Assembly (NCBI GenBank): GCA_029288315.1
Contig: JARIHL010000085.1
Location: forward strand, 14,333 to 38,332
DNA length: 24,000 nt
DNA from: Candidatus Saccharimonadota bacterium
Lineage (GTDB): Bacteria > Patescibacteriota > Saccharimonadia > Saccharimonadales > EFPC-124
Direction of reading: 5' to 3'
Shown piece by piece: positions 1 to 20,934 of this stretch (position 1 is its first letter; each line of letters begins with the position of its first letter). The notes beneath the pieces are model-generated. The model searched no databases and was not told the origin of the DNA. It was given only the letters and a program-made list of their open reading frames with translations. Both the position numbers and the translations under genes were made by a program.

Positions 1-170
1 CAGATGACCCATTATTACTTCAGAGGATAAAATTGCTTCTCTACGTGCATCAATTCTCGTTTGCGCCCACACTCATCAAAGAAAAGCCGGAAACAGCTCT
101 ACACATATTGTTGAACGCCATTTCTGACTATTCGACATTCACCGAAGGAGGTAGATTTAGTCTTACATAA
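1..170 (+). CDS. 3' end of an unidentified CDS entering from the left window edge (partial)
   Basis: Reading frame 3 is open from the edge to TAA at 168-170 (...STFTEGGRFSLT*). A strong hairpin terminator follows 12 nt later. No family recognised. Confidence 0.3.
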   Translation, partial: DDPLLLQRIKLLLYVHQFSFAPTLIKEKPETALHILLNAISDYSTFTEGGRFSLT

Positions 171-225: not shown

Positions 226-825
226 TTACAAGTATTTCTTCAAGTGTTCTAATGCCGGATCTGAAGATGCACGTATGAAGTTCATAGCGTGGAATAGCGC
301 AGCGATATAGATAGCCGGATAAACGGAATCTGGTTTGCTCATCTCCTCAATTACTGTCTTGAATGGAATTTTCTCAACATGGATCGTTTCACCAACCTCA
401 AGGTTTTGGTCTTGACTGATCTTTCCGCTAACAGCAAGGAAGGTATGTACTTGGTTAGTGTGATTGGCTGGGTTTGGGTAGCTCGTGCCTACATGGTAGA
501 GGGTACCTCCGGTGTAGCCCGTTTCTTCTTCAAGTTCACGCTTGGCGGCCACTTCAGGTGATTCACCTTCTTCCATGCCACCGCCGATGAATTCCATAAG
601 ATATTTCTGGACACCGTGACGGTAGTGCCGGAGCATCATTACGTTGTCATCTTCATCAATAGCAATACAGTTTACCCAGTCACCCAGTTCAAGAACGTAG
701 TACCTGCCAACTTTGCCACCCTGTGGAGTGGTACATGAGTCGGCGCGAAGCTTTAAAAACCTGTCATTAACGACGTATTCTGAGCTGTCTATCGTCCAGA
801 TTGGTAAGTCTTTGTCTGGATTCAT
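226..825 (-). CDS. Nudix hydrolase (ADP-ribose/NDP-sugar pyrophosphatase-like)
   Basis: Complete Nudix box GX5EX7REUXEEXGU is visible as GGMEEGESPEVAAKRELEEETGY. AGGAGG-type SD (rc of ccctcct at 831-837) lies upstream of the ATG. Confidence 0.85.
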   Translation of the reverse strand: MNPDKDLPIWTIDSSEYVVNDRFLKLRADSCTTPQGGKVGRYYVLELGDWVNCIAIDEDDNVMMLRHYRHGVQKYLMEFIGGGMEEGESPEVAAKRELEEETGYTGGTLYHVGTSYPNPANHTNQVHTFLAVSGKISQDQNLEVGETIHVEKIPFKTVIEEMSKPDSVYPAIYIAALFHAMNFIRASSDPALEHLKKYL

Positions 826-883
826 CTTGTCCCTCCTAGTTCTATATGTTACATGCCATTATACGACACATATATAGCTTACC

Positions 884-1753
884 TTAGTCTTCGGTAGGTT
901 GTCGACTATTTATAGTGCGCCAGTTTGCTTGACCGTAGTAAATTGTATCGGGTGTGCCCATATCTACTACTTCAGCTTCTGTTTCAAATGCATGCAAAGC
1001 CGTATTGCCCATATGTATTACCCATGGCCCTAGCGTATCCCTCATCCCAATATTTTTATTCTGATGTGGGTTTGCTTCTAGGAATTGATCGCAAAGATCC
1101 TTGAAGTAGTCGATATCAATAATATCCACGCCTATTCGAGTTGTATTTGCCGTACCCGGCACACCCGTAACAGGTTCTTCGGTTCGATCGAACATCCACA
1201 ATAGTCGATTCGTCCCTTCTTCAATAACCATTTTGTTTACATCACCAGTTCGTTCCGTGATGTTCCTCGTTGTCCCCATAGTAATTCCAGCACCCGAATC
1301 TTTATGAGCACGATTAAGTTCAACGAGAGCATCCATATCATGCAACATATCACCTGGAACAATCATAGCTTGACCCTTCAAATCAAGGGTTTCAATAGCG
1401 TTCAGTACAGCACCTTCAACTCCTGACAAGTCTTCCTCTTCTGAAAACCGATAGTCTACTCCGTCTGCATTAATCCAATCCTCAGCCGAAAGATGGTCAA
1501 TGACTTGCTCTTTGTGGTGTCCTACGCAAAATACAAAGTGGCGAAAACCCGCCTCTTGTAGTTGCTCGCAGATTCTATCAAGTACCGTTTTTCCTCCCTC
1601 AAGCTCAATGAGAGTTTTAGGAATAGCATCTTTTGTAACCTCTCTGGCTCGCATACCTAAGCCTGCAAGCGGCATTATAACTGTCACATCACTCATATCG
1701 AGCTCTTCGCCAGACTTGGCACGCTCAAATTTAGGGGCTTCTAATTCTCTCAT
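884..1753 (-). CDS. Sugar-phosphate nucleotidyltransferase (NTP_transferase family, RmlA/GlgC-like)
   Basis: N-terminal motif VIMPLAGLGMRAR...IPKTLIELEGGKTVLD matches the (L)AGGxGTRL...PKxL signature. VPGDM and DMGTP motifs occur downstream. I moved the start to the ATG at 1751-1753 (MRELEAP...) because AAGGAG precedes it. The ORF-track start at 1780 has no SD. Confidence 0.8.
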   Translation of the reverse strand: MRELEAPKFERAKSGEELDMSDVTVIMPLAGLGMRAREVTKDAIPKTLIELEGGKTVLDRICEQLQEAGFRHFVFCVGHHKEQVIDHLSAEDWINADGVDYRFSEEEDLSGVEGAVLNAIETLDLKGQAMIVPGDMLHDMDALVELNRAHKDSGAGITMGTTRNITERTGDVNKMVIEEGTNRLLWMFDRTEEPVTGVPGTANTTRIGVDIIDIDYFKDLCDQFLEANPHQNKNIGMRDTLGPWVIHMGNTALHAFETEAEVVDMGTPDTIYYGQANWRTINSRQPTED

Positions 1754-1881
1754 GGCTCTCCTTTGTAAACATAGTAGCAACCAATCTTCTCTGTAGCAAC
1801 ATATGTTCCCTTAAAAAAAGAACACATTTGATGTATCATTAAAGCAATAGCACTATAGAATCCCAGCAAGGAGATCGTTAA

Positions 1882-2931
1882 GTGAAAGATTCTAATATAG
1901 CCGTTTTTGACATTGGTGGTACATGGTTTCGAAGCGGTGTTTACATTAAGGGTTCGGATTTAGCTGAATTATCAAAGGCTCCCGCATATAACTACAAGAA
2001 TACGCCGTATGATAAAGTCGTAGAATTGCAACTTAAGCTTGTGGATTATCTCGTCGAACAGGTGCAATCTTATCAAAGCAAGGGCATCGACATCCAAGGA
2101 GCTTCAATTTCTATGGGGGCGGCCTTGAATGGTCATACTGGTGAGATTCTAAACTCCGGACCTTTATGGGGGCCTGAGTGCGAGCCCTTCGATTTGCTTG
2201 AGCAACTTCAGAAACGAATGCCTGAAATAAATTGGCTGGTAATTAATGATGTCAGTGCCGCCTTGCTGCGCCATGTAAACGATCCTGAATATCAAAAAGC
2301 GAAACGAGTTAATCTAATTACTGTTAGCTCGGGCATAGCTTGCCGTACATATGATCAAAAAGGTCATTATGTACCTCTAAATAAAGATGGAATTCAAGGC
2401 GAAATCGGTCATATTCCTATTCATTTCTCTCTTTTTGGAGAAATTATTACAGAAGATTGTGACTGTGGAGGTGCAAATCACTTAAATGCATTCGTTTCAG
2501 GACGTGGAATAACAAAGATTCTTCGCCGTCTATTGAATTCGAAAACGTCACCTATTAGTGATACTCATCTATTTAATAAGTTACAGAACTTGGAAGAAAC
2601 GGAATTGAATAAAGCTTTTTTCGATGTGCTCAACGAAGATGATCCGGAGGCAGTGAAGGTACTAGATCAAGTGACCTTTCCAATAGCCGAGATGATTATT
2701 AACACGTTCACGATAGACGCAGAGGTTGAGAAAGTGATTATGACTGGTGGTGTAGTCCATGCCGCCGAAGATCGTTACATGAAGAGTCTGTTGGTAAACC
2801 TTGAAAAAATCGGATTATATCAAACAACAGACCAAACTGCATTCTTTAAAGACGCGGTACGACTTGGTGTGAATGATGACAATTCAGGACTATTAGGTGC
2901 AGCCATTGCTTTTGAAAATAAGGAAAGATAA
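1882..2931 (+). CDS. ROK-family sugar (or cyclitol) kinase
   Basis: DIGGT phosphate-1 motif, INDVSAALL, GEIGH, and the ROK zinc motif CDCGGANHLNAFVSGRG (about 2458-2510). GTG start is preceded by AAGGAG. Confidence 0.85.
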   Translation: MKDSNIAVFDIGGTWFRSGVYIKGSDLAELSKAPAYNYKNTPYDKVVELQLKLVDYLVEQVQSYQSKGIDIQGASISMGAALNGHTGEILNSGPLWGPECEPFDLLEQLQKRMPEINWLVINDVSAALLRHVNDPEYQKAKRVNLITVSSGIACRTYDQKGHYVPLNKDGIQGEIGHIPIHFSLFGEIITEDCDCGGANHLNAFVSGRGITKILRRLLNSKTSPISDTHLFNKLQNLEETELNKAFFDVLNEDDPEAVKVLDQVTFPIAEMIINTFTIDAEVEKVIMTGGVVHAAEDRYMKSLLVNLEKIGLYQTTDQTAFFKDAVRLGVNDDNSGLLGAAIAFENKER

Positions 2932-2932
2932 G

Positions 2933-4069
2933 GTGTTTGACGCAAATAGTAGCACATGGAAGGTCTCTTCCTCACTTCCCATAGAGTATGCAGTTGTTGA
3001 GAGGAGCGGTTTTTTCTTTCAACCCGACTACGATGAAAGTATCTTTGGTCAAAAGTCAGATGACGGCATGACCCGCCGTCTTATTGTAATTGACCATATT
3101 GTCGCCAAATACTTTGGAGATACAATAAAAAGTTACTTCTCGCGTAATGATATACATGTAGAATTTCTAACTTTGACTGCTGATGAAGAGCTAAAAGTTG
3201 CAGATACGGTGTTTTCCGTACTCAATAAGATTATCGACTTAAAGCTCCAAAGACGAAGTGAACCTATCATTGCAATTGGAGGAGGCGTACTGCTAGATAT
3301 TGTGGGCTTAGCCGCAAGTTTGTATCGTCGTGGTACACCTTATGTTCGCGTACCGACAACACTTGTTGGACTTATTGACGCAGGCATAGGAATTAAGACA
3401 GGAGTTAATTATGATACCCATAAAAACCGCATAGGTACATACTACTCCCCTAAATCCGTTCTGCTTGACGCGACCTTCTTATCTACACTTGACGAGCGCC
3501 ATCTTCGAAATGGCATGGCTGAAATTCTAAAAATGGCTCTGATTAAAGATGCTGATCTGTTTTCGCTTCTCGAAGAGAGTGCGCATCAAATCGTTGATGA
3601 TAAATTGCAAAGCCACCCCCACTCTCAGGCAATAATGCGCCACTCTATACAGAGTATGCTTGAAGAGCTTGAGAAAAACTTGTGGGAGAAGGATTTAGAG
3701 AGGCTTGTAGATTTTGGACATACCTTCAGTCCCACTATCGAAATGAAGGCCCTGCCCGAGCTACTTCACGGCGAAGCAGTCGCGATCGACATGGCCATAT
3801 GCATCATAATTGCGCATGGCCGTAAACTCCTTACCAATGATGAAATGGATCGTATATTCCAAGTGTATAAAGCTCTTGGACTTCCCATATTCCATTCATC
3901 GTGCGAAATAAAAGTATTGTGTGATGCGCTAGATGACGCGACGAGTCATAGAGACGGTCTCCAGAGAGTTCCTCTGCCTAAAGGTATAGGAGAAGGTATT
4001 TTCGTACACGATATCTCGGAACAAGAAATTAAAGATGCCGTTATGGTTTTGAAGGAGAAAGCTTTATGA
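2933..4069 (+). CDS. Sugar-phosphate cyclase of the 3-dehydroquinate-synthase superfamily (non-canonical DHQS; EEVS/EVS/DDGS/DOIS-like)
   Basis: GGGVLLDIVGLAA, RVPTTLVGLIDAGIGIKTGVNY...KNRIGTYYSP (about 3347-3440), AEILKMAL, DFGHTFSP and LHGEAVAIDM align to the DHQS nucleotide and metal-binding motifs. Start is ambiguous. GTG 2933 has an AGGA SD at 2921-2924 and sits 1 nt after the ROK stop. In-frame GTG 2897 is the ORF-track start. Confidence 0.8.
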   Translation: MFDANSSTWKVSSSLPIEYAVVERSGFFFQPDYDESIFGQKSDDGMTRRLIVIDHIVAKYFGDTIKSYFSRNDIHVEFLTLTADEELKVADTVFSVLNKIIDLKLQRRSEPIIAIGGGVLLDIVGLAASLYRRGTPYVRVPTTLVGLIDAGIGIKTGVNYDTHKNRIGTYYSPKSVLLDATFLSTLDERHLRNGMAEILKMALIKDADLFSLLEESAHQIVDDKLQSHPHSQAIMRHSIQSMLEELEKNLWEKDLERLVDFGHTFSPTIEMKALPELLHGEAVAIDMAICIIIAHGRKLLTNDEMDRIFQVYKALGLPIFHSSCEIKVLCDALDDATSHRDGLQRVPLPKGIGEGIFVHDISEQEIKDAVMVLKEKAL

Positions 4070-5199
4070 TCAAAGCACTGAAGACTATCGATAAGAATAC
4101 TTCGCTGAGTGAAGTAGATACTCCAACTATAGAAGATGGTCAAATGATCACACAGCCACTTTTTGTTGGTGTTTGCGGAACGGATCTTCAGATAATTCGT
4201 CGCCAACGCCCTGACCCCGCGACAATACTTGGACATGAAGGTATCGCGCGAATACTCGAAAGTAAAAGTAGCAAGAAAGGCATGCAGCCCGGAGAGAATG
4301 TGGTTTTCAACCCTGTTGACCCTACAGATCAAAATCAGATACTTGGCCACAATATTCCCGGTCTTTTGCAGGAGCGATATCTGGTTACGGAACATGCGAT
4401 AGATCAAGATTTAGTCGTTCCTTTTCCTAAAGCTATCGATCCTATGCTAGGGGCGCTCGTTGAGCCACTTGGCACCGTCGTTTATGGTCATAGTCTCGTA
4501 TCAAAAGCCGTTAATCAATCTTCGATTGCAATTGTTGGAGCCGGGGCAATCGGAATCATGAACGCCTTGTATGCGAAAGCTCAAGGATATAAGCAAGTCC
4601 TTCTAATAAATGCCTCCCGGGATCATCTGGATTGGTGCATTCAGAGAGGAATCATCGAAGAAGAAAATACTTTTATAGACTCAGACAATCTCGCAGATGA
4701 GATACTTGCCGCAACACAGGGTGCAGGAGTTGACGCGGTATATATGTGTACCAGCAGGCCGAATGCGCTGGCCGCCTTAAGCCAGGCGTTGCATTATATA
4801 AAAGCGAACGGGTGTATTGATCTTGTCGGAGGAATTAAGGACGGTGATAAGATCGAAGACCTTCCAAGTGTCGAAGATCTCAATGCGGTGCGGCGGGCAA
4901 ACTTTTGTGGCATTCCATCAGACGGCTACATTGAGACAACAACGACCGCTGAAGGTAAGCAGATAAATCTTACCGGGCATCGTGGTACATCCTTAAAACA
5001 TTTCGAAGGGGTAATTGAGAACTTAAGAAGTCATGGAGACACATTTAGTAAAGTTATCTCACATATTGTCTCGCTTGAGGCGTGCGCCGGTTTATTTAAC
5101 GAATTAGCCGAAGGTCAAGTGAAAGAATTTAATGGGTCGCCCTATATAAAAGCCGTGGTTGATTTAAGCCTAACTGGTCACAGTATAAGGAATGTCTAA
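4066..5199 (+). CDS. Zn-dependent medium-chain dehydrogenase/reductase (ADH/threonine-DH-like) 1
   Basis: GVCGTDLQ...GHEG catalytic-zinc region and Rossmann motif IVGAGAIG. The ATGA start/stop overlap with the cyclase gene indicates translational coupling. Confidence 0.8.
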   Translation: MIKALKTIDKNTSLSEVDTPTIEDGQMITQPLFVGVCGTDLQIIRRQRPDPATILGHEGIARILESKSSKKGMQPGENVVFNPVDPTDQNQILGHNIPGLLQERYLVTEHAIDQDLVVPFPKAIDPMLGALVEPLGTVVYGHSLVSKAVNQSSIAIVGAGAIGIMNALYAKAQGYKQVLLINASRDHLDWCIQRGIIEEENTFIDSDNLADEILAATQGAGVDAVYMCTSRPNALAALSQALHYIKANGCIDLVGGIKDGDKIEDLPSVEDLNAVRRANFCGIPSDGYIETTTTAEGKQINLTGHRGTSLKHFEGVIENLRSHGDTFSKVISHIVSLEACAGLFNELAEGQVKEFNGSPYIKAVVDLSLTGHSIRNV

Positions 5200-5200
5200 T

Positions 5201-6238
5201 ATGAGTGCGTCTCAGACATACAGAACATTGAAGTTATCAGAAAATAAATTAGAGATAGTGAATGAACAAGTCGGTGAGTCGAATGATGCGCAGCTTGTCA
5301 TGAAACCTATACTTGCAGGAATATGCCGTTCAGATGTAAAAGAGTTCTTAGGAACACGCACCGTAAGGCATGATTTTGGGCATGAAATCTTAGCTGAAAT
5401 AAAATCGCGAAGCATAAACAACTCCCTTCTACCTAAAGTTGGAGATCTTGTCGTACTCGATCCCCACGTTGAGATTGATAGAAGTTCGGGATTTGGAGAA
5501 CTCATTGTTGCTTCGGGGAGTACGGAGAGTCTCGCCAAGGCATTCGTAAAGGTTCCTGCTTCGGTAAGTCCCGAACGGCTTGTATTCATCGAGCCGTTAG
5601 CATGCGCACATCACTGCGTCGCTAATTTATTGAAATTCGAGCAAAAGCAAGACCTTCAGAGTCTGTCTGTTGCTGTAGTTGGAGCAGGTATGACAGGAAT
5701 TCTTATCGGGCTCTTATGTAGGCATTATGGAGCTAAGGTCACGATAATTAACCGAAGCGAAGACAGACTAGGCTTCCTTAGAAGGACGTCTATTTTTAGC
5801 GACGACGAATTAAGCTTATTCGGTGATATAGAGCAAGAATTCGATGCAGTAATCCCCACCACAACATTCCTATTTCCTGAAGTCCTTGAGTTCAGCAGAG
5901 AAATAGTTAAGGATTCTGGCCTCATTTTACTTTATGGCGGTACAAAATCCGGCGACAAGTTTCCCAATATAAATAATATTGCTATCGATGATATTCGCAG
6001 AAATCAACGAGAGAGTACGATCACTTCAAAAGGAAAGAGCTTTAAATTATGCGGTACGCATGGTGCAACGACTGACGATTTCAAATCAGTAATAAAATTA
6101 TTGGAAAATTCATCACAGGATTTTGCAGTCGAAAAGCTTATAGGTCGTAGGATCACTTTAGATGGTGTGCCAAAGACTATTTCTGAGATGACTAAAAAAG
6201 AAATTCTAGGAAAAACGATAGTGGAGTTTGATTTATAA
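5201..6238 (+). CDS. Zn-dependent medium-chain dehydrogenase/reductase 2
   Basis: GICRSDVKEF...FGHE and Rossmann VVGAGMTG. ATG 5201 lies 10 nt after AAGG (5187-5190). The ORF-track ATG 5192 abuts the SD and is less likely. Confidence 0.75.
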   Translation: MSASQTYRTLKLSENKLEIVNEQVGESNDAQLVMKPILAGICRSDVKEFLGTRTVRHDFGHEILAEIKSRSINNSLLPKVGDLVVLDPHVEIDRSSGFGELIVASGSTESLAKAFVKVPASVSPERLVFIEPLACAHHCVANLLKFEQKQDLQSLSVAVVGAGMTGILIGLLCRHYGAKVTIINRSEDRLGFLRRTSIFSDDELSLFGDIEQEFDAVIPTTTFLFPEVLEFSREIVKDSGLILLYGGTKSGDKFPNINNIAIDDIRRNQRESTITSKGKSFKLCGTHGATTDDFKSVIKLLENSSQDFAVEKLIGRRITLDGVPKTISEMTKKEILGKTIVEFDL

Positions 6239-6244
6239 AGGGTT

Positions 6245-7120
6245 ATGAAAAAAGTTGTCTTAACAGGAGCGAGCGGCTTCACTGGCACAAAATTCATTGA
6301 ACTGTATAGTTCAAAGTATGAAATTATACCCATCTCTAGGGAGAGCAAATTAAACCCTATAGATCTAAAAGATCACGAAAAATTAACAGAGCTCTTTGAT
6401 CGTACAAAACCCGATGTGATCGTGCATTTAGCGGCAACGATTGGACGTGAGGCCGACAGAGCAGATGTGTTCTCTGTTGACACGGCGACTACAAAGTTTC
6501 TCGTTGATCTGGCGAAAAAACATAAGCTACCTTTTATATATAACAGCTCAGAGATTGTTTACGAAGGTCGTCCCGATGGAATGTACGAAGAAACGGACGA
6601 ATACCATCAACGCAGTGATTATGGGCGAGCAAAGGTAGTAAATGAGAAGTATATTAAAGCATCTGGTCTTCCATACCTCATCACGAGGGCGCATAGATAC
6701 ATAGGCTATCCAAGCGATAGTTTTGACCGCACTCGATCAAAGAAGTTCACTATCACTATGATGGATCTAATAGCCGGCAAAGAAGTTCACCTGGATGCAA
6801 AAAGAAATATATCACTTCCTTTAATTGACGACATCTGTGATGTAATTGATCATTACATTGAGCACGATCAGGATAAGCAGATAGTATTAAATGTTGGCAT
6901 GGAGAAGATTACTACATATTACAATTTATGGTGCGACATTGGCCGTGCAGCAGGTATTAATACTTCTCTTATAAAAGACGATGGTGACGAACCTAAGTGG
7001 CTTCCAGATAATACACTGTCGACTGAAAAATTACGTCGCTTGAACTATCCTCGTAGAAGCTATGAAGAAATAGTTGAACTCATTGCAGCGGGCATTAAAT
7101 CTGAAATTACGGATTATTGA
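6245..7120 (+). CDS. NAD(P)-dependent epimerase/dehydratase/reductase (extended SDR, RmlD/GalE-like)
   Basis: N-terminal VLTGASGFTGTKF (GxxGxxG) and catalytic YGRAK (YxxxK). Confidence 0.8.
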   Translation: MKKVVLTGASGFTGTKFIELYSSKYEIIPISRESKLNPIDLKDHEKLTELFDRTKPDVIVHLAATIGREADRADVFSVDTATTKFLVDLAKKHKLPFIYNSSEIVYEGRPDGMYEETDEYHQRSDYGRAKVVNEKYIKASGLPYLITRAHRYIGYPSDSFDRTRSKKFTITMMDLIAGKEVHLDAKRNISLPLIDDICDVIDHYIEHDQDKQIVLNVGMEKITTYYNLWCDIGRAAGINTSLIKDDGDEPKWLPDNTLSTEKLRRLNYPRRSYEEIVELIAAGIKSEITDY

Positions 7121-7775
7121 TGCCAAGGTGCCTAAATACGATCTTACTAATTTTTCCATAAACAAACTGACTTCCAGTTTCATTTGGGTGTACAGCATCC
7201 TCAGCTAACATAGTAGCGCTATCAAAGTCTTCACGAAGATCAATGTAATCTGCTCCCGTTTCTACTGCATGAGCCCTTACAGCCTCATCGTATTCTTCGA
7301 AACGTGCATTATTAAAGATATTATCAGTCCAGTATTCTCTTGCTCTTTCTTCATCTACCGGAACGGCACTCAGATAAATAGGCGTAAAAGGAGAGTCCTC
7401 CCTGCCTTCATTTAAATCATCGATAACACCTTTTAGATCCGATAGATCGCGCTGAAAATCTGAAAGTAAGCGTCTAGGTGTCGGTACGCCGTCAGGATAA
7501 AGAACACAGGCTTCACAGGCTCCTATTGCGAAGATACCAAGCTGCCTACCTCGACGGTGACACTCAATATTAGCTGTAATTTGTTTAGAGTCAAGAGAGT
7601 GAACGAGCATATTGCCCGGTCCGGCGTGGTTTGCTACTGCAACATACGGCGGCTCCTGATTAAAGCGCCGTTCATCCGCCTCGTGTTTAAGTCGGGTTGT
7701 CCAATCTGACTCACGGCCATATATACCATAGGCTAAACTGTTCCCAAAGATATGTACTGTTGCCATCGGCAGCAT
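7107..7775 (-). CDS. SGNH/GDSL-family hydrolase (esterase/acyl-hydrolase-like)
   Basis: Block I VHIFGNSLAYG (GDS(L) variant with Ser), a central GxN-type block (GPGNML), and block V DAVHPN (DxxH) near the C-terminus. The 3' end overlaps the convergent SDR gene by 14 nt. Confidence 0.65.
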   Translation of the reverse strand: MLPMATVHIFGNSLAYGIYGRESDWTTRLKHEADERRFNQEPPYVAVANHAGPGNMLVHSLDSKQITANIECHRRGRQLGIFAIGACEACVLYPDGVPTPRRLLSDFQRDLSDLKGVIDDLNEGREDSPFTPIYLSAVPVDEERAREYWTDNIFNNARFEEYDEAVRAHAVETGADYIDLREDFDSATMLAEDAVHPNETGSQFVYGKISKIVFRHLGINNP

Positions 7776-8744: not shown

Positions 8745-9083
8745 ATGAAATATATTAGGAACTTTATCCTAATTGCTAGCATTGTTGGCACGATAGCAAC
8801 TTTATTAAACACGGATGTAGCATTTGCTGCCGATGGAGTTGCGCAAGCTGAAAATGCCTTAAAGGGATATATTAAGATCGGTATTTTACTTGCTGGCATC
8901 GTAGGGGTTGGCTTTGTAGTCATAGGTGCAATTAAGTATGCATCTGCATCTGGACACCCTGATAGGATGGAAAAAGCAAAAGACACAATCATTCATGCTC
9001 TTATCGGAGTAGCAATTGCGCTTGGTGCCTATGCATTAGTTGATATTGTCGCAAGTGTTGCGAAATCTGCCTTCGGAAGTTAA
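8745..9083 (+). CDS. T4SS pilin-like protein (VirB2/TrbC-like, Gram-positive/CPR 'T4SS_pilin' type)
   Basis: Signal peptide ending ...DVAFA|ADG, followed by two hydrophobic helices separated by a charged loop (ASASGHPDRMEKAKDT). First gene of the T4SS operon. Confidence 0.65.
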   Translation: MKYIRNFILIASIVGTIATLLNTDVAFAADGVAQAENALKGYIKIGILLAGIVGVGFVVIGAIKYASASGHPDRMEKAKDTIIHALIGVAIALGAYALVDIVASVAKSAFGS

Positions 9084-9087
9084 TACC

Positions 9088-10539
9088 GTGTTCAACAGCT
9101 TAAGTATCTTCGCGGACGCACAGGCCGCTTCTGAGGCGTTGAGATCAAATATTTCTCCAATGTTCTCAAATATGATTATAATAGCCGCTATTCTATGCGT
9201 GTTATTTGTAGTCTTTGGCGGCATCTATTATGCAACAAGTGGAGGCAATCCTGAAAAGCTTGAGCGTGCAAAGAAAACACTGCGAAATGCTTTCATTGGT
9301 TTTGTGGTGATACTCGGAGCAGGAACATTGGTTGCGATTATGCAGAACGCATATTCACAAAAAGCCGTGCAACCTACGCCAATTACACAGACACAAATTA
9401 AAGAAACAAAAAATGACTGTCCCCTGTGTGAGGTAATCAACCAGAGTGTTACAGGGTTTATTAATGGTATCGTCCAATCTATAGGAAAGCCAATCATTGA
9501 TGCCTTAAAACAGTTTACTACTGCAACTCCTCTTATGGCTCAGAATAGCGCGGTATTCAACTTATGGGCAGTTATTGTAGCAATTGCAGATGTACTTTTT
9601 TTACTTGTTATTGGGTTGATTGGATTCAGAATAATGAGCGCTTCTGTCATTGGATTTGAAGATGTGGATATCAGATCACTTCTGCCTCAAATTATTCTGA
9701 CCTTTATACTCGCCAACCTGTCTATATTTGCAATTGATGCAATAATTACAGTTTCTAATGCTATGATTCAAGCCTTGTTGATCGGTATGTCGAACGAGAT
9801 TATCTGGACGGCACTAGGTGGACTTATCGCGACAGCCGCTACTGTGAACATTGGTGTGCTAATCTTTATAGCAATTGCCATCATTCTAGCTGTCATGCTT
9901 CTCATCTATTATCTTAAACGTCTTATTATTCTCTACATTGGTGCGGTACTCTCACCTCTAATTGCTCTTCTTTGGCTACTACCGAGTTTCCGTGACTTTG
10001 CTATCTCATCGGCGAAGATGTACATTACTACAATATTCGTATTGTTTGTACAAGTTGTTGTGCTGATGCTTGCTGTTTCGTTATTCTCAGGGCTAATTCA
10101 AGGCGAAGGCAATCAGTTTATGACGGCTTTGCTTGCAATCGCTACGTTATCCGTGCTGCTCTCAACTAATAGAACAATGAACCAGTTAACGATGATGAGC
10201 GCTGGAGGTCAAGGAATGCGAAAGCTCGGCAATACCTTTGTGCGAGGTGTCAGTCATGTAGCAAGTTCTGTTAAACAGGCTGGAGCCGCCAAGCCAGAAG
10301 TTTCAGTATCCCGTAATAGTAGTCCAGCAGTCTCAAGTGCTCGACCAATAATGCCAGCCAGTACCGCACTTGCAACCGGAGAAACCCGCCAGGTATCACC
10401 GCGTAAAGCTGCCTCAGCTTTAACCGATAAAAAATCGTCACGCGAAGTTATGGTAACTGGTGGTGCTTCAAAACCAAATGTCACTATGACCGAAGCCCCT
10501 ATTAAAAAGACGCCTCGTATTCCGAAGGGAGGAAAATAA
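9088..10539 (+). CDS. Polytopic T4SS membrane protein: N-terminal pilin-like module fused to a VirB6/TrbL-like multi-TM domain with a disordered basic tail
   Basis: The N-terminus repeats the upstream pilin motif (FGGIYYATSGGNPEKLERAKKTLRNAFIGFVVILGAG). At least 5 further TM helices follow. The Ser/Pro/Lys-rich C-terminus is not hydrophobic. Start is uncertain: GTG 9088 just after the upstream stop, ATG 9040 (ORF track) or ATG 9160. Confidence 0.6.
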   Translation: MFNSLSIFADAQAASEALRSNISPMFSNMIIIAAILCVLFVVFGGIYYATSGGNPEKLERAKKTLRNAFIGFVVILGAGTLVAIMQNAYSQKAVQPTPITQTQIKETKNDCPLCEVINQSVTGFINGIVQSIGKPIIDALKQFTTATPLMAQNSAVFNLWAVIVAIADVLFLLVIGLIGFRIMSASVIGFEDVDIRSLLPQIILTFILANLSIFAIDAIITVSNAMIQALLIGMSNEIIWTALGGLIATAATVNIGVLIFIAIAIILAVMLLIYYLKRLIILYIGAVLSPLIALLWLLPSFRDFAISSAKMYITTIFVLFVQVVVLMLAVSLFSGLIQGEGNQFMTALLAIATLSVLLSTNRTMNQLTMMSAGGQGMRKLGNTFVRGVSHVASSVKQAGAAKPEVSVSRNSSPAVSSARPIMPASTALATGETRQVSPRKAASALTDKKSSREVMVTGGASKPNVTMTEAPIKKTPRIPKGGK

Positions 10540-11045
10540 TGAGAATTTCAATTGTTCCGGCCCAAATAACTACCGTTGAAGATAAGATTATCGGCAACAT
10601 CACCGTACAACAGGCAATGCTTCTTGGAGTTCCCATTCTAGTTGGATTTATTATTGCGATAGTGTTTCCACCTGCGGGTCAATTTGTTACATATAAAATT
10701 GCTATCGTGTTAGGGCTATTTGCAATTTGCGGTTCACTTGCTATCCGCATTAAAGACAGAATAATAGCGAAATGGATCAAGTTATTTGTCGTTTATTCTG
10801 CTCGCCCTCTTTACTATGTTTTCGATAAAAACTCGACATACTTGCGTAACCATGAAGAGTCGGAGGTTGTTGCAGAAACCACAGAAGATGTGAAACCAAT
10901 CAAGAAACCAGTTACTTTGACAAATAATATTTCGCCTAAAGAATTCGTCAGACTTGAGCAGTTCGCTACCGATGCTAGAGCGGGCATGAAATTTGAGGTT
11001 GGCAAGAAAGGAGAATTGAATGTTCATATTACCGAAGTTAAATAA
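10539..11045 (+). CDS. PrgI-like / VirB3-like small T4SS membrane protein
   Basis: N-terminal pattern ...EDKIIGNITVQQAMLLGVPILVGFIIAIVF plus a second TM helix. Positioned immediately upstream of VirB4, as VirB3/PrgI genes are. Start overlaps the upstream stop (TAATG), with a GGAGG SD. Confidence 0.55.
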   Translation: MRISIVPAQITTVEDKIIGNITVQQAMLLGVPILVGFIIAIVFPPAGQFVTYKIAIVLGLFAICGSLAIRIKDRIIAKWIKLFVVYSARPLYYVFDKNSTYLRNHEESEVVAETTEDVKPIKKPVTLTNNISPKEFVRLEQFATDARAGMKFEVGKKGELNVHITEVK

Positions 11046-11634
11046 AAAAGGCTCGTCGCGTCATCAGATTGCAATTAAGGGCGTTGAGGATAGCGTACTT
11101 ATTCTCCCGAATAATGAGTACCGAGTTATCATTGAAACATCTTCTATCAACTTTCATCTTATGAGTGAGGACGAGCAGGACGCGGTTGTCGATATCTACC
11201 AGGCATTTCTTAACTCGCTCTCTTTTCCAATCCAAATCGTGCAGAAAGTTCGTGCGCTCGACCTTGACGATTATCTTCAAGGCTTTGAAGCTAAGAAAGA
11301 AAAAGAATCTCTCGATGTCTATAAAAACCAAATCGATAGCTACACTAAATACGTCAAATCGCTCGTAAAAACAAATAAGATTCTTTCTCGCCAATTCTAT
11401 ATAGTTATTCCTTACCAAACAAAAGGCAAAGAAGGAGTAGAGGTAGCGAGAGAACAATTAGCAAACCGTCTCGCTATTGCCGAAAAGGGGCTTGGCAATG
11501 TTGGTATTAAGACACGTTTACTAAATAGCTTAGAGTTACTCGATCTATTCTATAACTCATACAATGCAACAGATGCGAAACAGCAACCCCTTACACAACA
11601 GACGATAGATTTATTGCAGAAGAATTATTTTTAA
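11020..11634 (+). CDS. VirB4 N-terminal-domain protein (separate ORF, in frame with the downstream VirB4 ATPase)
   Basis: IKGVEDSVLILPNNEYRVIIETSSINFHLMSEDEQDAVVDIYQAFLNSLSFPIQIV matches the conserved start of Gram-positive VirB4/TcpF/PrgJ-type proteins. AGGAG lies 6 nt before the ATG. Ends at TAA 11632-11634. Confidence 0.6.
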   Translation: MFILPKLNKKGSSRHQIAIKGVEDSVLILPNNEYRVIIETSSINFHLMSEDEQDAVVDIYQAFLNSLSFPIQIVQKVRALDLDDYLQGFEAKKEKESLDVYKNQIDSYTKYVKSLVKTNKILSRQFYIVIPYQTKGKEGVEVAREQLANRLAIAEKGLGNVGIKTRLLNSLELLDLFYNSYNATDAKQQPLTQQTIDLLQKNYF

Positions 11635-11643
11635 GGACACACC

Positions 11644-13389
11644 ATGAATTTAGTAAATCCAATTACAAAAATCAAAGAGATCCAAAAAGAGCGTGAAATG
11701 CGGCCAAAGCAGCATACTCTCTCATTCGGCGAACAGGATCCAATGGACATTATTTCTTATGCAGGAATGATGGAACAACCCGATCACCTTATCATTGATG
11801 GACAGTTCCGCCGCACCATTTTCATATCCGGCTATCCACACACGGCAGAAGTGGGATGGCTCGATTCGCTCACTCACCTTAATCATGATATAGATGTGTC
11901 ATATCATGTCGAGCAGGCTGACTCTAATGAAGCGCTAAAGAAGCTTGAGAAAAAGATTACACAACTCGAATCAATGCGCCGCGCGAAACTACGAGACGGC
12001 GGAATTATTGGTTCCGAAATTACCGATCCTCTCGATTCAGCTATGAATTTGCGGGATGCAATTCGACGAGGCCAACAGAAACTTTTTCATGTTTCTATCT
12101 ATGCGACTCTCGTAGCAGAATCACTAGAAGAACTAAATGATATCACTAACAGTTTAAAGTCTTCCCTCAGTGCCCGGCTGTTCTATATTAAGACCGCTCA
12201 GTATCAACAGGTCGAAGGATTACAGTCTACCTTGCCCCGTGGAGAGAATGCGCTCGCTCAGCGTCGCAACCTTGATAGTGAAACAGCGGCTTTAACATTT
12301 CCGTTTGTATCCTCTGAGCTAGTACAGCCAGGAGGTATTCTTTACGGAGTAAATAATTCAAATAACTCTTTGGTAATCATTGATCGCTTTAGTCTACATA
12401 ACGCCAACAGCATTACTTTTGCTCAATCAGGAAGTGGTAAGAGCTACACGACGAAAGTTGAAATTCTTCGTCAACTTATGCAAGGCACAAAAGTTATCGT
12501 GATTGACCCGGAGCGTGAGTATCAGAATCTCGCAAGTTCTGTCGGCGGTGCGTACATTAAGCTCTCTGCGCAGTCTGACCAAAAACTCAATCCGTTTGAT
12601 ATGGCGACAACCTCACGAAGTTCGGAGCAGCTGTCTTCTCATGCGCAAGACCTAACAGATGTCATCTCTCTGATGGTAGATGGCCTAAGCGCGCCAGAAA
12701 AAGCAGCACTTGATAAAGCAATCCTCGCAGTTTATTCAGCAAAGAAGAAAAGCTCTCCGATTCTTGAAGACCTATTCAAGCAGCTTAAGAAGATGAAGGA
12801 AGCAGAACTTTGTAAGCGACTCGAAAAGTATATCTCAGGCTCGCTTGCTAATGTATTTAATCACCAAACGAACATTAATTTGGATAATCGGCTTGTGGTC
12901 TTCGACATCAAAGACCTGCCTGAATCAATCCGGCAAATCATGATGATGATCGTCGCCAACTTTGTACAAAACACTGTAAAGCTTCATCCACAAAAACGAA
13001 TGCTTGTCATTGACGAAGGTTGGCTGCTGCTTGAACACGAAGAGACCGCACGCTTCGTTGCCGGGCTTGTCCGACGTGCTCGCAAGTATGGTCTTGGCGT
13101 ATCCATTATTACCCAACAGGCTAATGACTTCCTTTCCGACAAATATGGCCGTGCTATAGCATCACAAAGTTCGCTCCGTATTCTCATGCGCCAGGACACG
13201 ACTACTATTGAGCAGGTGACTCGCGAATTTCGGCTAAGTGATTACGAAAAGTCTTATCTTCTTACGAGTGATCGGGGTGATGCCCTGATCATCGCCGATC
13301 AACAACACGTATCCTTACACGTTACCGCCTCAGAAGAAGAGCATCCGCTCATTACTACCAACCCATTAGAGACGCTAAAAGACGAATAG
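11644..13389 (+). CDS. virB4: VirB4-family T4SS ATPase (central and C-terminal ATPase part)
   Basis: Walker A AQSGSGKSYT (about 12421-12450), Walker B MLVIDEGW, and the conserved ...GYPHTAEVGWLDSL... region upstream. Size and operon position fit. Confidence 0.9.
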   Translation: MNLVNPITKIKEIQKEREMRPKQHTLSFGEQDPMDIISYAGMMEQPDHLIIDGQFRRTIFISGYPHTAEVGWLDSLTHLNHDIDVSYHVEQADSNEALKKLEKKITQLESMRRAKLRDGGIIGSEITDPLDSAMNLRDAIRRGQQKLFHVSIYATLVAESLEELNDITNSLKSSLSARLFYIKTAQYQQVEGLQSTLPRGENALAQRRNLDSETAALTFPFVSSELVQPGGILYGVNNSNNSLVIIDRFSLHNANSITFAQSGSGKSYTTKVEILRQLMQGTKVIVIDPEREYQNLASSVGGAYIKLSAQSDQKLNPFDMATTSRSSEQLSSHAQDLTDVISLMVDGLSAPEKAALDKAILAVYSAKKKSSPILEDLFKQLKKMKEAELCKRLEKYISGSLANVFNHQTNINLDNRLVVFDIKDLPESIRQIMMMIVANFVQNTVKLHPQKRMLVIDEGWLLLEHEETARFVAGLVRRARKYGLGVSIITQQANDFLSDKYGRAIASQSSLRILMRQDTTTIEQVTREFRLSDYEKSYLLTSDRGDALIIADQQHVSLHVTASEEEHPLITTNPLETLKDE

Positions 13390-13391
13390 AT

Positions 13392-14018
13392 ATGCAGTAT
13401 ATCAGGATAGCTACCACTCTTTATTCATTCCGAAGAGAGATCGGTATTGTTCTTGGTGTGCTTGCAGCACTTATTATCCTTCCTATATTCGCCGTCATTG
13501 GCTTACTGAACAACGGCGTTCAGGGAGCCTCAGACGCTTTAGTATCTGTAGACCCAGTGACGCACAAGGTGGAAGTACGGGATGCTAAAGGTGGCCTTAT
13601 AACAACGCTGGATGCAACGACGACCTGGCCTATCAGAGGAGTTGTGACACAAGAATTCGGCCACCCCAACCCACCATACCAGACGACACACTCAGGAATA
13701 GACATTGACGGAGGATTTGGCTCCCCTGTGACTGTCTTTATGCAAGGAAAGGTTATTAAAGCAGGCGACAATGTGCTTGCTGGGTGTGGCTCGCACTGTG
13801 TCATCGTAGATCACGGTTTCGGAATTACCTCGATATACGCCCATATGTCAGCGCATAACGTGCAGGTTGGACAAACAGTCAAGCCAGGTGAGGTTATTGG
13901 ACGAGAAGGTGCCGAGGGGTGGGCAGAAGGCGCACACTTACACTTTGAGATACAAATTGCTCACATCCCCGTTAATCCACGCACATTCATGATAGGAAAC
14001 CCGCCACCAAGGAGCTAG
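13392..14018 (+). CDS. M23 (LytM-type) peptidoglycan endopeptidase, membrane anchored (VirB1-analogous wall hydrolase)
   Basis: N-terminal TM helix. HSGIDI (HxxxD, about 13690) and HLHFEI (HxH, about 13935) zinc motifs. Confidence 0.9.
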   Translation: MQYIRIATTLYSFRREIGIVLGVLAALIILPIFAVIGLLNNGVQGASDALVSVDPVTHKVEVRDAKGGLITTLDATTTWPIRGVVTQEFGHPNPPYQTTHSGIDIDGGFGSPVTVFMQGKVIKAGDNVLAGCGSHCVIVDHGFGITSIYAHMSAHNVQVGQTVKPGEVIGREGAEGWAEGAHLHFEIQIAHIPVNPRTFMIGNPPPRS

Positions 14019-14021
14019 ATT

Positions 14022-16452: not shown

Positions 16453-17154
16453 TTAATCTTGAGAATCTGTGGAGTATAGCTTTTTATTAACTAATTCTAT
16501 TTTGCGAATATCTAAGTCTAAGCCCATGACGGCCAAAACTCTAACTATGTCCATCATGTGCACTAAAGCTGCTTTCCGAATATTAAACCTTAGAGTTTCG
16601 CCCAACTGTTTTTCGACTAAATATACATAGTAAGCAGGATTCGCATGGGTGAATGCACTAAAATAATCATATATCTGAACTGTCCCTGGGCCACGCGCAG
16701 CGATCCTATCTTGTATGGTCGAGGAAGTCCAAGGATTTGGATACTTTAAAGAATACTCTTCATTCGCCAGCATTTTTGTCGCCATACGTTTCATGGAATC
16801 CACATAAGTATCGACACTATCTTTATACGATTGAGCACGATCATCGACTTTTTCGGGATCAACTACTATGTGATGAATATCTGCTCCGACTTCCATAAGG
16901 GCACGTACAAGACTTGCGGCACTTAGCGTTAGGCTTACTTTGTCAATCTTGGTTAAAGCGATTGCGGTCAAATAATATTCAAGACCCATTCGATATGCCA
17001 GGCGCATTGAAGTCTGGAGTGGAGTCTCTTGAGCGAAATTACCCTTTGAATAGTGCAGATTTACCTTATCTATAAGCTCAGCCATGTCACCATGAATTTC
17101 TGCCAGTAAATCAAAATTAAGCTGCGTCATCGTAATTCCGCTATTCTTTCTCAC
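16453..17154 (-). CDS. Hypothetical all-helical protein (233 aa), weak resemblance to DUF5677/AbiV-like proteins
   Basis: Third gene of a co-directional trio with 44-48 nt gaps. Motifs AASLVRALMEVGADIHHIV and IYDYFSAFTHANP recall DUF5677-type helical proteins, from memory only. GTG start at 17154; alternative ATG at 17130. Confidence 0.55.
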   Translation of the reverse strand: MRKNSGITMTQLNFDLLAEIHGDMAELIDKVNLHYSKGNFAQETPLQTSMRLAYRMGLEYYLTAIALTKIDKVSLTLSAASLVRALMEVGADIHHIVVDPEKVDDRAQSYKDSVDTYVDSMKRMATKMLANEEYSLKYPNPWTSSTIQDRIAARGPGTVQIYDYFSAFTHANPAYYVYLVEKQLGETLRFNIRKAALVHMMDIVRVLAVMGLDLDIRKIELVNKKLYSTDSQD

Positions 17155-17198
17155 TCATACAGCCATTATAACTTTAACTCAAGTTTTCTGATGAAGTT

Positions 17199-18620: not shown

Positions 18621-18668
18621 TATTACTTTGCCTTTTATATATTGCTACTTCTATAGTATCAGGTAATG

Positions 18669-20124: not shown

Positions 20125-20934
20125 CTATATAGTATTCAATAACTTTAATTCTTCGAGGGAGAAAGCTTTATCCGGATTGTCAGCACTACGCCACGACTTC
20201 TTATCGCCGTTCAAAATATCACTCTTCAATGCCGTATATCCTATCAGACCATCCTTGTCGCCAATAATCTTGTGGAGGCGCTTCTCGATATTCGGACTGT
20301 CTACGGCGAATAATAATATCGGAAAATTCGTACCCGTGTCATCCCATACGCCACTCTCAAAGTAGTCCATGTATTTCTTAACTGCCCTTGTCGCAACGAA
20401 GAAGGGTTGATGAGCATGGTGTACTTGTAGGAAATACTGTTTATCACTTCCGAGTCTTATATACGCATCTGGAAGTGGCTGAGGGAAGTATTCGTAGTCT
20501 TCATGTTTTAGATCTACTTTAGTAAAAAACTTGAGGTCAGAATTGTGTGATCGTAACGCTAGAAAGATATTAAATAAGTCGAAACAATCTTGGATGAACT
20601 GTTCGGATACGCTCTTGTCTTTATATATGACGCTTACTCTTACTCGTATATTCAGTGTTGGTTTATTTCGTTGGAGCCTACGTATCCCCTCGGGTAATAA
20701 ATGGTATGCGACTGGCTTATGAAGAAGTCTGTAATTATCAAAGTACCTTTTTGCTATGAGTCCTTGTTGCTCAAGTGTCTCAAGCCTTCTAAACACATTC
20801 ATACCTGGATTCGACTTAACAAAATACATTTTTAATGACGCTGACGATACAAATCGAAACTTATACAGTAATTCTAATATCTGTAGTTGTTCGGTATTTA
20901 GTGGGCGTCTGTATTTTGGTTCTGTATTATTCAT
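20125..20934 (-). CDS. Replication-relaxation family protein (winged-helix N-terminus; putative atypical relaxase/replication initiator)
   Basis: LNTEQLQILELLYKFRFVSSASLKMYF...VFRRLETLEQQGLIAKRYF...YHLLPEGIRRL follows the Replic_Relax wHTH pattern (family recalled from memory). Located between the T4SS/cargo and the recombinase. Confidence 0.5.
   Translation of the reverse strand: MNNTEPKYRRPLNTEQLQILELLYKFRFVSSASLKMYFVKSNPGMNVFRRLETLEQQGLIAKRYFDNYRLLHKPVAYHLLPEGIRRLQRNKPTLNIRVRVSVIYKDKSVSEQFIQDCFDLFNIFLALRSHNSDLKFFTKVDLKHEDYEYFPQPLPDAYIRLGSDKQYFLQVHHAHQPFFVATRAVKKYMDYFESGVWDDTGTNFPILLFAVDSPNIEKRLHKIIGDKDGLIGYTALKSDILNGDKKSWRSADNPDKAFSLEELKLLNTI

Follow-up and report, generated by a model that had tools for sequence, protein, structure and literature searches.

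Introduction

The C7 cyclitols include acarbose, an α-glucosidase inhibitor, validamycin, a trehalase inhibitor, and compounds made by Burkholderia leaf symbionts that act on plants and insects. Saccharibacteria and other bacteria of the CPR, or candidate phyla radiation, are regarded as metabolically minimal epibionts in which specialised metabolism is almost nil. Here we describe a gene island, from a CPR host, that is centred on a sugar-phosphate cyclase of predicted EEVS type (EEVS being the synthase of 2-epi-5-epi-valiolone) and that lies in the left part of a 24,000-nucleotide stretch of contig JARIHL010000085.1, the whole of which is referred to hereafter as the window. With a probability that we put at about 0.65, the island makes a tailored, phosphorylated, nucleoside diphosphate (NDP)-activated C7 cyclitol (carbasugar) from sedoheptulose 7-phosphate (S7P).

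The closest described chemistry is that of acarbose biosynthesis, in which AcbC is the EEVS, AcbM a ROK-family 7-kinase of EEV (short for 2-epi-5-epi-valiolone), AcbL an enzyme assayed with Zn2+ that dehydrates its substrate to valienone 7-phosphate, AcbN a short-chain dehydrogenase/reductase (SDR) that converts valienone 7-phosphate to valienol 7-phosphate, AcbU a 1-kinase, and AcbR/VldB the nucleotidyltransferase that forms GDP-valienol (PMC9200736, PMC7081202). AcbM and ValC, the latter from validamycin biosynthesis, are both cyclitol kinases of the ROK family (PMC9200736). By analogy, this chemistry provides a precedent for each of the steps proposed below.

The closest described setting is that of the Burkholderia leaf-nodule symbionts associated with kirkamide and streptol-glucoside, where, as in the present case, a horizontally acquired EEVS cluster is found in a genome-reduced symbiont with mobile-element genes flanking it. 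The EEVS locus of Candidatus Paraburkholderia kirkii (L010; L-numbers such as L001 and L026 denote the loci or contigs carrying relatives that were compared with the window) encodes a ROK-cupin fusion, the EEVS, an RmlD-like SDR, a GT20 protein, a class-III aminotransferase, a protein of the family called MDR2 below, an MFS transporter and a GlgC-like nucleotidyltransferase.

Results and Discussion

Layout of the cyclase cluster

Genes were called from a list of open reading frames (ORFs) and from Pfam and NCBIfam scans of the window proteins. The cluster and its immediate surroundings are made up as follows.

1–170, plus strand: 3′ end of the gene for an APH-like (aminoglycoside-phosphotransferase-fold) kinase; translated in frame 3 it reads ...DPLLLQRIKLLLYVHQFSFAPTLIKEKPETALHILLNAISDY..., a match to the C-terminal end of the L026 APH protein (368 aa)
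179–214: perfect hairpin of 16 bp between the convergent APH and Nudix genes
226–825, minus strand: Nudix hydrolase of the NDP-sugar / ADP-compound pyrophosphatase type (Pfam NUDIX 1.4e-15)
884–1780, minus strand: sugar-1-phosphate-type nucleotidyltransferase (Pfam NTP_transf_3 and NTP_transferase; G-x-G-x-R...PK motif)
1781–1881: divergent intergenic (promoter) region between the nucleotidyltransferase gene and the ROK operon, 101 bp, AT-rich
1882–2931, plus strand: ROK-family kinase (Pfam ROK 2.3e-19; DIGGT ATP motif)
2897–4069, plus strand: predicted EEVS-type cyclase (Pfam DHQ_synthase and DHQS_C, 9.9e-35 and 1.4e-28)
4066–5199, plus strand: predicted Zn-dependent medium-chain dehydrogenase MDR1 (Pfam ADH_N and ADH_zinc_N; motifs VCGTD, GHEG and EPLG)
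5192–6238, plus strand: MDR2, a divergent paralogue of MDR1 (26% identity, E=8e-19; motifs ICRSD, GHE and EPLA)
6245–7120, plus strand: extended SDR of the RmlD/GalE type (RmlD_sub_bind 1.8e-23, Epimerase 2.6e-23; GASGFTG and YGRAK)
7107–7775, minus strand: GDSL/SGNH hydrolase (Pfam Lipase_GDSL_2 4.1e-8), at the right edge of the island

The original prediction, made from the letters of this DNA, had placed a C7-cyclitol or carbasugar cluster at 226–7775, and the ORF list, Pfam and NCBIfam all agree with it on the coordinates and domains of the seven genes that it named; the same range additionally holds the GDSL hydrolase gene on the minus strand, which it had passed over. Its description of the plus-strand genes as tightly coupled was borne out at each junction. 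The ROK and cyclase ORFs overlap by 35 nt, or are separated by a 1-nt gap if the cyclase starts at GTG 2933, a codon with a better ribosome-binding site (AAGGAAAG) than the alternative cyclase start. The cyclase and MDR1 genes share an ATGA overlap at 4066–4069, read directly from the sequence, through which MDR1 is translationally coupled to the cyclase. MDR1 and MDR2 overlap by 8 nt, or have a 1-nt gap between them if the start is ATG 5201, and 6 nt separate MDR2 from the SDR gene. Upstream of GTG 1882, the ROK start, an AAGGAG ribosome-binding site is found at a distance of 7 nt.

The nucleotidyltransferase and Nudix genes are transcribed divergently from this operon, as had also been noted, and the true start of the former is likely the ATG at ~1753, which is the one shared with its relatives. 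Promoter-like hexamers at 1811–1839 (plus strand) and 1881–1852 (minus strand) were seen in the intergenic region, with matches in 1781–1881 no commoner than in shuffled sequence. Of the 16 pairs in the hairpin at 179–214, 8 are G-C; a T-rich tail comes after it, and it is likely to act as a bidirectional terminator. In the Nudix protein the Nudix box GGGMEEGESPEVAAKRELEEETGY is readable, and its top NCBIfam matches are NudE and the YffH/AdpP family, each under its cut-off. The same protein also matches the PADLOC candidate-defence family PDC-S07 (2.1e-9), probably through generic Nudix similarity. Domain scans found no shikimate-pathway, aminotransferase, glycosyltransferase, methyltransferase or ATP-grasp domain anywhere in the window, in agreement with the original prediction.

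Identity of the cyclase

Among solved structures, the window cyclase was closest to the validamycin-pathway EEVS, ValA (4p53, E=1e-113), followed by a desmethyl-4-deoxygadusol synthase (DDGS; 5tpr, 2e-69), 3-dehydroquinate synthases (DHQS; ~1e-40) and 2-deoxy-scyllo-inosose synthase (DOIS; 8e-29). Compared with the reference cyclase sequences of the PMC4426668 supplement, it was 44–48% identical to seven EEVS (ValA, AcbC, SalQ, CetA and PrlA, at 45–48%, and two others), 34% identical to DDGS, 28–29% identical to 2-epi-valiolone synthases (EVS), and 23–28% identical to DHQS, aminoDHQS (aDHQS) and DOIS. The protein carries the EEVS motifs YRR, KNRIG (KNRxG), VDFGHTFSP and SH-RDG, and its three metal ligands (Glu in NGMAEILK, His in DFGH and His in LLHGEAV) line up with those of ValA and DHQS. 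In a neighbour-joining (NJ) tree with 200 bootstraps, it fell within the clade of EEVS and DDGS in 200/200 replicates and within an EEVS-only clade in 128/200.

That the gene is instead an ordinary AroB (3-dehydroquinate synthase) set among unrelated sugar-metabolism genes is scarcely credible, even though Pfam and NCBIfam label the protein a DHQ synthase and some annotations of its homologues read 3-dehydroquinate synthase. Its score against the curated aroB equivalog TIGR01357, 232.8, falls below the cut-off of 305, and its identity to the DHQS references (24–28%) is far lower than that to EEVS (44–48%). The DHQS motifs R--LN-GH--GH and KNL-G are replaced by RLVDFGHTFSP and KNRIG, no shikimate genes accompany it in the window, and the order of its neighbours has been kept under purifying selection (see below). 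Since the sub-cut-off aroB score, the EEVS motifs, the identities and the position in the tree all point the same way, we assign the window cyclase, from its sequence, to the S7P cyclases of EEVS type and not to AroB. The doubt that the original prediction had cast on an AroB assignment is thereby upheld by profile search, motifs and a phylogeny with the reference classes.

PMC4426668 gives, citing Kean 2014, the sites of ValA Asp281 and His360 as discriminating EEVS from DDGS, and our fingerprint comparison covered these two discriminators and the visible motifs, out of 14 fingerprint residues. At both sites the window cyclase is in the EEVS state, with Asp (VDFGH) and His (SH-RDG); DDGS has Ala (IAYGH) and Thr (RT-RDG), and EVS and DHQS have LN-GH--GH. 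The comparison bears on a further candidate, a gadusol- or mycosporine-type UV-sunscreen cluster, since such pathways begin with EEVS and DDGS enzymes (PMC4426668). We consider this reading very improbable: the two fingerprint residues compared are of the EEVS type (D/H) rather than the DDGS type (A/T), the window and the conserved block described below both lack MT-Ox, O-methyltransferase, ATP-grasp and non-ribosomal peptide synthetase-like genes, and the Methyltransf_33 protein that L026, L038 and L039, but not L001, encode on the left of the block resembles EgtD and carries no oxidoreductase domain.

The island is rare: cyclases at least 76% identical to that of the window form only nine clusters at the 90% identity level. 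A scan of species-representative genomes gave its best matches in Streptomyces, Kitasatospora and Amycolatopsis, at 48–50% identity, and returned no close relative.

Kinase, dehydrogenases, SDR and nucleotidyltransferase

In the window as in L026, L001, L027, L029, L038 and L039, the ROK gene lies directly upstream of the EEVS gene, which it overlaps or abuts, and its product is 62–82% identical across these relatives. By analogy with the kinases of the acarbose and validamycin pathways, it is predicted to be a cyclitol (EEV) kinase. MDR1 directly follows the EEVS gene in every relative and is 66–81% conserved. MDR2 falls under the Pfam thresholds of the ADH models, its paralogy to MDR1 being recognised from the E value given above. 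Both proteins keep the catalytic-zinc motifs, with Cys (C-x-x-D), His-Glu (GHE) and Glu (EP), and on these motifs both can be placed in the Zn-dependent medium-chain dehydrogenase/reductase (MDR) family. Among solved structures MDR1 matches generic dehydrogenases only (alcohol, threonine and polyol), which do not distinguish between dehydratase and reductase as its role. MDR2 had no relative by sequence among solved structures; over 320 aa it shares 33% identity (E=2e-46) with the MDR-like gene product of the Ca. Paraburkholderia kirkii EEVS locus, and it shares 30–33% with those of genes from the EEVS loci of Noviherbaspirillum and Caballeronia, and by sequence it belongs to a family associated with EEVS clusters. 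The SDR, 75–80% conserved in L026 and L001 and encoded in flipped orientation in L001, is predicted to be an NDP-linked ketoreductase or epimerase.

A profile of the nucleotidyltransferase family had as its best solved relatives 7whr, the heptose-1-phosphate guanylyltransferase HddC, mannose-1-phosphate guanylyltransferases and ADP-glucose pyrophosphorylases. The family is a short (about 270–290 aa), distinct subfamily that is not GlgC-like, and its match to the GlgC-like enzyme of the kirkii locus is weak (20% identity over 243 aa). With HddC and other sugar-1-phosphate nucleotidyltransferases it shares the fold and the N-terminal G-x-G-x-R/PK motif; the similarity is, however, weak (E 1e-8 to 1e-11), the window has no other heptose genes, and the partner here is a cyclase, not an isomerase. 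An NDP-heptose or other ordinary surface sugar made from S7P, with no carbocycle formed, is among the readings to be weighed, given that HddC is the best single-sequence solved relative of the nucleotidyltransferase and that RmlD-like SDRs work in deoxysugar pathways. We hold it to be most unlikely, as the GmhA isomerase, the GHMP heptose kinase and the GmhB phosphatase are absent and the central, best-conserved gene encodes an EEVS-type cyclase.

Comparison with known C7-cyclitol clusters

Taken by class, the enzymes of the window parallel those of the validamycin and acarbose clusters, as the original prediction had proposed, and also those of kirkii-type EEVS clusters. Like the validamycin and acarbose clusters, the CPR cluster has an EEVS as first enzyme, a ROK-family kinase in the class of AcbM/ValC, a Zn-MDR in that of AcbL/ValN, an SDR in that of AcbN/ValK and a second kinase with a sugar-1-phosphate nucleotidyltransferase (the logic of AcbU with AcbR/VldB), together with S7P as the presumptive precursor. 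It differs from them in missing the AcbO/ValD epimerase, the aminotransferase, the HAD phosphatase, the GT20/GT5 pseudoglycosyltransferase and the deoxysugar genes; its nucleotidyltransferase is short and not GlgC-like, and its second kinase has the APH fold. Its extra members are a second DHQS-like enzyme, a thiamine pyrophosphate (TPP) enzyme, an aldolase and the Nudix hydrolase, and its host is a CPR bacterium, not an actinomycete.

The nitrogen-introducing aminotransferase of C7N-aminocyclitol pathways (ValM/AcbV type) was found neither in the window nor in the block of L001, L026, L038 and L039. No GT20 or other glycosyltransferase (GT) domain that could represent a pseudoglycosyltransferase of the VldE/AcbS type occurs in the window or the conserved block, and no VOC/glyoxalase or cupin domain protein that could represent the EEV 7-phosphate 2-epimerase (AcbO/ValD) occurs in the window or related loci.

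With the kirkii locus, the window has in common a ROK protein, an EEVS, an RmlD-like SDR (adjoining the EEVS in the kirkii locus), an MDR2-family protein and an NTP-transferase, the similarity of the SDR and nucleotidyltransferase to their kirkii counterparts being weak. The GT20 pseudoglycosyltransferase, class-III aminotransferase, MFS exporter and ROK-cupin fusion are peculiar to the kirkii locus, which for its part has no MDR1, second DHQS-like enzyme, APH, Nudix, TPP enzyme or aldolase; its EEVS is ~39% identical to the window cyclase (tblastn).

Extent, conservation and accessory status of the island

Four contigs, L026, L001, L038 and L039, carry the genes of the window at 65–96% protein identity. 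Nudix is 87–91% conserved among them, and the APH-like kinase gene is 70–71% conserved across L001, L038 and L039. To the left of the Nudix gene all four carry, in order, the gene for the APH-like kinase, an aldolase resembling 4-hydroxy-2-oxovalerate aldolase (HMGL-like), a TPP enzyme resembling acetolactate synthase, the second DHQS-like protein, here called SPC2, and an Ahr-like aldehyde reductase. The full block, Ahr-SPC2-TPP-aldolase-APH / Nudix-nucleotidyltransferase / ROK-EEVS-MDR1-MDR2-SDR, is complete on L026 and L001; the DNA of L038 and L039 ends inside MDR1 and the window begins inside APH, and each carries the parts of the block that its DNA covers. The left arm of the source contig was reconstructed from these four loci and from the SPC2 protein P0262 rather than read directly. 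P0262 is 89% identical to the SPC2 of L026 and is encoded on a contig of 47,689 bp, equal in length to the one with the window cyclase (P0001) and very probably identical with it; the source genome, too, very probably has the left arm. The island would then measure ~13–15 kb and comprise at least 12 genes, of which the window holds the right-hand two-thirds. The suggestion that further genes lie to the left of the window is thus supported by the APH 3′ end at 1–170 and by the left arm of the four relatives. Catabolism of a cyclitol was considered as a role for such a gene set and rejected, the central enzyme being a biosynthetic cyclase and no IolD-type model being among the TPP-enzyme matches listed.

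The gene order of the block is kept on five independent contigs, the window included, in two genomic neighbourhoods. In the window and L026, the block lies directly upstream of a type IV secretion system (T4SS) operon, and in L001 its neighbours are Replic_Relax/recombinase genes on one side and a pyruvate kinase / phosphoglycerate kinase region on the other. In the Saccharimonadales contigs L031, L032 and L033, whose VirB4 proteins are 93–94% identical to that of the window, the block is absent and quite different genes are found upstream of the same T4SS operon. Because it is absent at the same site in close relatives and present in more than one context, the block is a strain-variable accessory island.

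Between the window and L026, synonymous divergence is saturated (dS 1–4), dN is 0.05–0.20 and dN/dS is 0.02–0.08, these values covering the genes with estimable dS, a set outside which the SDR and GDSL genes fall. The block is under strong purifying selection, and since order and orientation have been kept despite saturated synonymous sites, it is a functional unit rather than a set of chance neighbours. The possibility raised in the original prediction, that synteny in relatives might reveal unrelated neighbours, is answered by the order kept on five contigs and by the low dN/dS. The core of the island, ROK-EEVS-MDR1, is conserved down to 62–69% in L027, L028 and L029.

At the right edge, the GDSL gene is 85% conserved in L026 and missing from L001, and a distantly similar GDSL gene adjoins Nudix-nucleotidyltransferase-GT genes in L035; whether this hydrolase belongs to the cluster is uncertain. 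L026 has an additional gene between its SDR and GDSL genes (L026:14211–15476, plus strand), the 421-aa product of which matches nothing in Pfam or NCBIfam; it is missing from the window and L001 and is a variable member of the island. L038 has a second nucleotidyltransferase paralogue (L038:3208–4053; 42% identity). To the left of the island, a 407-aa S-adenosylmethionine-dependent methyltransferase (Methyltransf_33, EgtD-like) is encoded on the minus strand of L026 (1–778), L038 (4145–5368) and L039 (5032–6255), and not on L001.

SPC2 and the CPR module

The gene for the second cyclase-like protein was located as follows.

SPC2, second DHQS-like protein: L026, 2562–3671; L001, 2555–3664; L038, 7123–8229; L039, 8001–9107; L027, 12315–13406; L029, 12314–13396

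It was also found in L034–L037 and L040–L048. The SPC2 family is sharply bounded, with its members at E values of 1e-70 or lower and then a jump to ordinary DHQS at 1e-45, and all named members are from CPR bacteria (Ca. Daviesbacteria, Ca. Microgenomates); several further members are encoded on contigs of 0.8–1.1 Mb. In the NJ tree SPC2 formed a clade of its own (200/200), outside the six named classes DHQS, aDHQS, DOIS, EVS, DDGS and EEVS. Its signature, RLTHLGH-TGK, has His in place of DHQS Asn268 and Lys in place of His275, and the superfamily metal ligands and most catalytic residues are kept. Judging from these sequences, SPC2 may be a new sugar-phosphate-cyclase class that feeds an NDP-cyclitol or glycoconjugate pathway.

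In L027, L028 and L029, whose cyclases are 63–70% identical to that of the window, only ROK-EEVS-MDR1 is found, followed directly by SPC2, with a divergent SDR. In a second set of CPR loci, SPC2 is present and the EEVS is missing. Within a few kb of SPC2, five of these (L035, L040, L041, L042 and L043) carry an orthologue of the nucleotidyltransferase (34–44% identity). A GT28/EryCIII-like glycosyltransferase is encoded in the SPC2 loci L035, L037, L041, L042 and L043, and GT4 glycosyltransferases are also among the neighbours of SPC2 across Saccharibacteria, Daviesbacteria and further CPR bacteria. A small transaldolase gene lies directly upstream of SPC2 in L037, L040, L043 and L044, a Nudix gene adjoins SPC2 in L036 and L037, and an APH-like kinase is found in L035, L037 and L043. 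Because nucleotidyltransferase, Nudix and APH accompany SPC2 in CPR loci devoid of EEVS, they are part of an older module of CPR bacteria that goes with SPC2, and the island is a composite in which a ROK-EEVS-MDR1 cassette has been joined to that module. The original prediction had counted the nucleotidyltransferase and Nudix genes as part of the cyclase set; both are indeed present, with the qualification that the pair tracks SPC2 at least as closely as it does the EEVS. The pairing of transaldolase and SPC2 in other loci suggests S7P or a related ketose phosphate as the compound that SPC2, too, would cyclise, and in the present lineage the TPP enzyme and aldolase may make the SPC2 substrate or add a branch.

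The composite structure of the island raises the alternative that two adjacent pathways are encoded, ROK-EEVS-MDR1-MDR2-SDR leading to a free or phosphorylated cyclitol (for instance one like valienol or streptol) and APH-nucleotidyltransferase-Nudix-SPC2 leading to a separate NDP-cyclitol for a surface glycoconjugate. The recurrence of the nucleotidyltransferase family near SPC2 in the five EEVS-less loci speaks for such a division, as do the GT28/EryCIII-like glycosyltransferase, small transaldolase and Nudix genes of EEVS-less SPC2 loci, and in L027 and L029 the EEVS core is accompanied by SPC2 and by no nucleotidyltransferase. On the other side, the composite block moves as one unit on five contigs and in two contexts, the position of SPC2 directly after EEVS-MDR1 in L027, L028 and L029 points to a functional link between the two cyclases, and RmlD-like SDRs, of which the EEVS operon encodes one, usually require a substrate that is NDP-linked. 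We regard two separate pathways as an unlikely, if serious, alternative to a single NDP-activated C7 cyclitol.

Proposed pathway

The data described here show the families of the proteins, the coupling and conservation of their genes, the accessory status of the island and its host, and from them we infer the following steps. The cyclase (2897–4069) would convert S7P to 2-epi-5-epi-valiolone, an activity expected from its family. The ROK kinase would phosphorylate the cyclitol in the manner of AcbM/ValC. MDR1, MDR2 and the SDR would account for dehydration, ketoreduction or epimerisation, on the model of AcbL/AcbN and ValN/ValK. The APH-like kinase might then add a 1-phosphate in an AcbU-like role, and the nucleotidyltransferase might form the NDP-cyclitol in a role like that of AcbR/VldB. 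Nudix could hydrolyse or proof-read NDP-linked species. Since relatives of the module in other CPR lineages adjoin glycosyltransferases, a glycoconjugate or pseudo-saccharide fate is favoured for the product.

Several points weigh against this scheme. In the NJ bootstrap, the monophyly of an EEVS-only clade reached 64%, and in the actinomycete EEVS loci with the best cyclase matches in the genome scan the accessory genes have no homologue, even at an E threshold of 0.01. The AcbO/ValD-type epimerase, the HAD phosphatase, the aminotransferase and the (pseudo)glycosyltransferase are all absent from the window and related loci, so that the island has no complete route to a known C7N product; nor does the island or window hold a glycosyltransferase or acceptor gene, and the end product is not readable from the genes. 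Nucleotidyltransferase, Nudix and APH co-occur with SPC2 in loci devoid of EEVS, the EEVS core of L027 and L029 is found without them, and they may serve the product of SPC2 rather than that of the EEVS. SPC2, the TPP enzyme and the aldolase are not accounted for by the scheme. Finally, the enzyme activities are all predicted, the likeness to the Acb and Val proteins being one of enzyme class.

A more elaborate picture would have a CPR-wide cyclitol pathway founded on SPC2 as a new cyclase class and fused, in the present lineage, with a horizontally acquired EEVS cassette, yielding a pseudo-saccharide with one or two C7 carbasugar units, its product being a surface glycoconjugate or a valienol- or validoxylamine-like inhibitor of glycosidases or trehalases that is used on an actinobacterial host. 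We offer this as speculation and think it improbable.

Sugar-phosphate-cyclase clusters are well known, and the gene set found here is unprecedented. The literature searched held no report of EEVS or cyclitol clusters in Saccharibacteria, Patescibacteria or CPR bacteria. If the proposed function is correct, an island that diverts S7P into a carbasugar would give the CPR something rare, a pathway dedicated to a small molecule or a glycan. Because the known C7 cyclitols are bioactive, a C7 product could mediate the interaction of epibiont and host. SPC2, in turn, is a lead to a new sugar-phosphate-cyclase class and to cyclitol-containing CPR envelopes. Saccharibacteria can now be manipulated genetically, which makes the prediction testable (PMC10633639).

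Host, secretion system and remainder of the window

To the right of the island, the window carries the following features.

8745–16379, plus strand: complete Saccharibacteria-type T4SS operon, with two VirB2/T4SS_pilin genes and genes for PrgI-like, TraC-like and VirB4 proteins, an M23 peptidase and a VirD4-like coupling protein
16453–19898, minus strand: three genes between the T4SS and Replic_Relax, encoding a weak DUF5677 match, a 473-aa protein weakly matching a CAP12/Pycsar-type TIR domain, and a DUF4238 protein
20125–20934, minus strand: Replic_Relax gene, just upstream of the serine recombinase ORF
21260–23104, plus strand: large serine recombinase, 614 aa
22980–23051, minus strand: genuine tRNA-Trp (anticodon CCA; 75.5 bits in Rfam), lying within the final ~40 codons of the recombinase gene

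VirB4 is 90–98% identical to many metagenomic proteins and 93% identical to Candidatus Saccharimonadales bacterium proteins, some of them encoded on contigs of 0.9–1.0 Mb, and judged by this protein the host is a Saccharimonadales (CPR) bacterium, which agrees with the small, reduced genome that had been supposed at the outset. The second T4SS pilin gene encodes a 499-aa TrbL-like fusion. Among strains, the region directly upstream of the T4SS operon is hypervariable. The T4SS, which is widespread in Patescibacteria, is reported to be one that a cultured Saccharibacterium cannot do without in epibiotic growth (bioRxiv 10.1101/2025.01.22.634366). An integrative conjugative element, with the adjacent T4SS as its transfer apparatus, was considered and rejected: the same T4SS and Replic_Relax block is found in relatives that do not have the cluster, and the T4SS is reported in the same study to be essential for epibiotic growth.

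The three genes at 16453–19898 look like a small defence or variable region. The 473-aa TIR-domain protein gave weak matches to PADLOC PDC-S35 and to TIR effectors, and the equivalent position in L031 and L032 is occupied by restriction-modification and Kiwa-like (KwaA/KwaB) genes. Where the tRNA-Trp gene and the recombinase gene overlap, there may be a site of integration or the edge of a mobile element.

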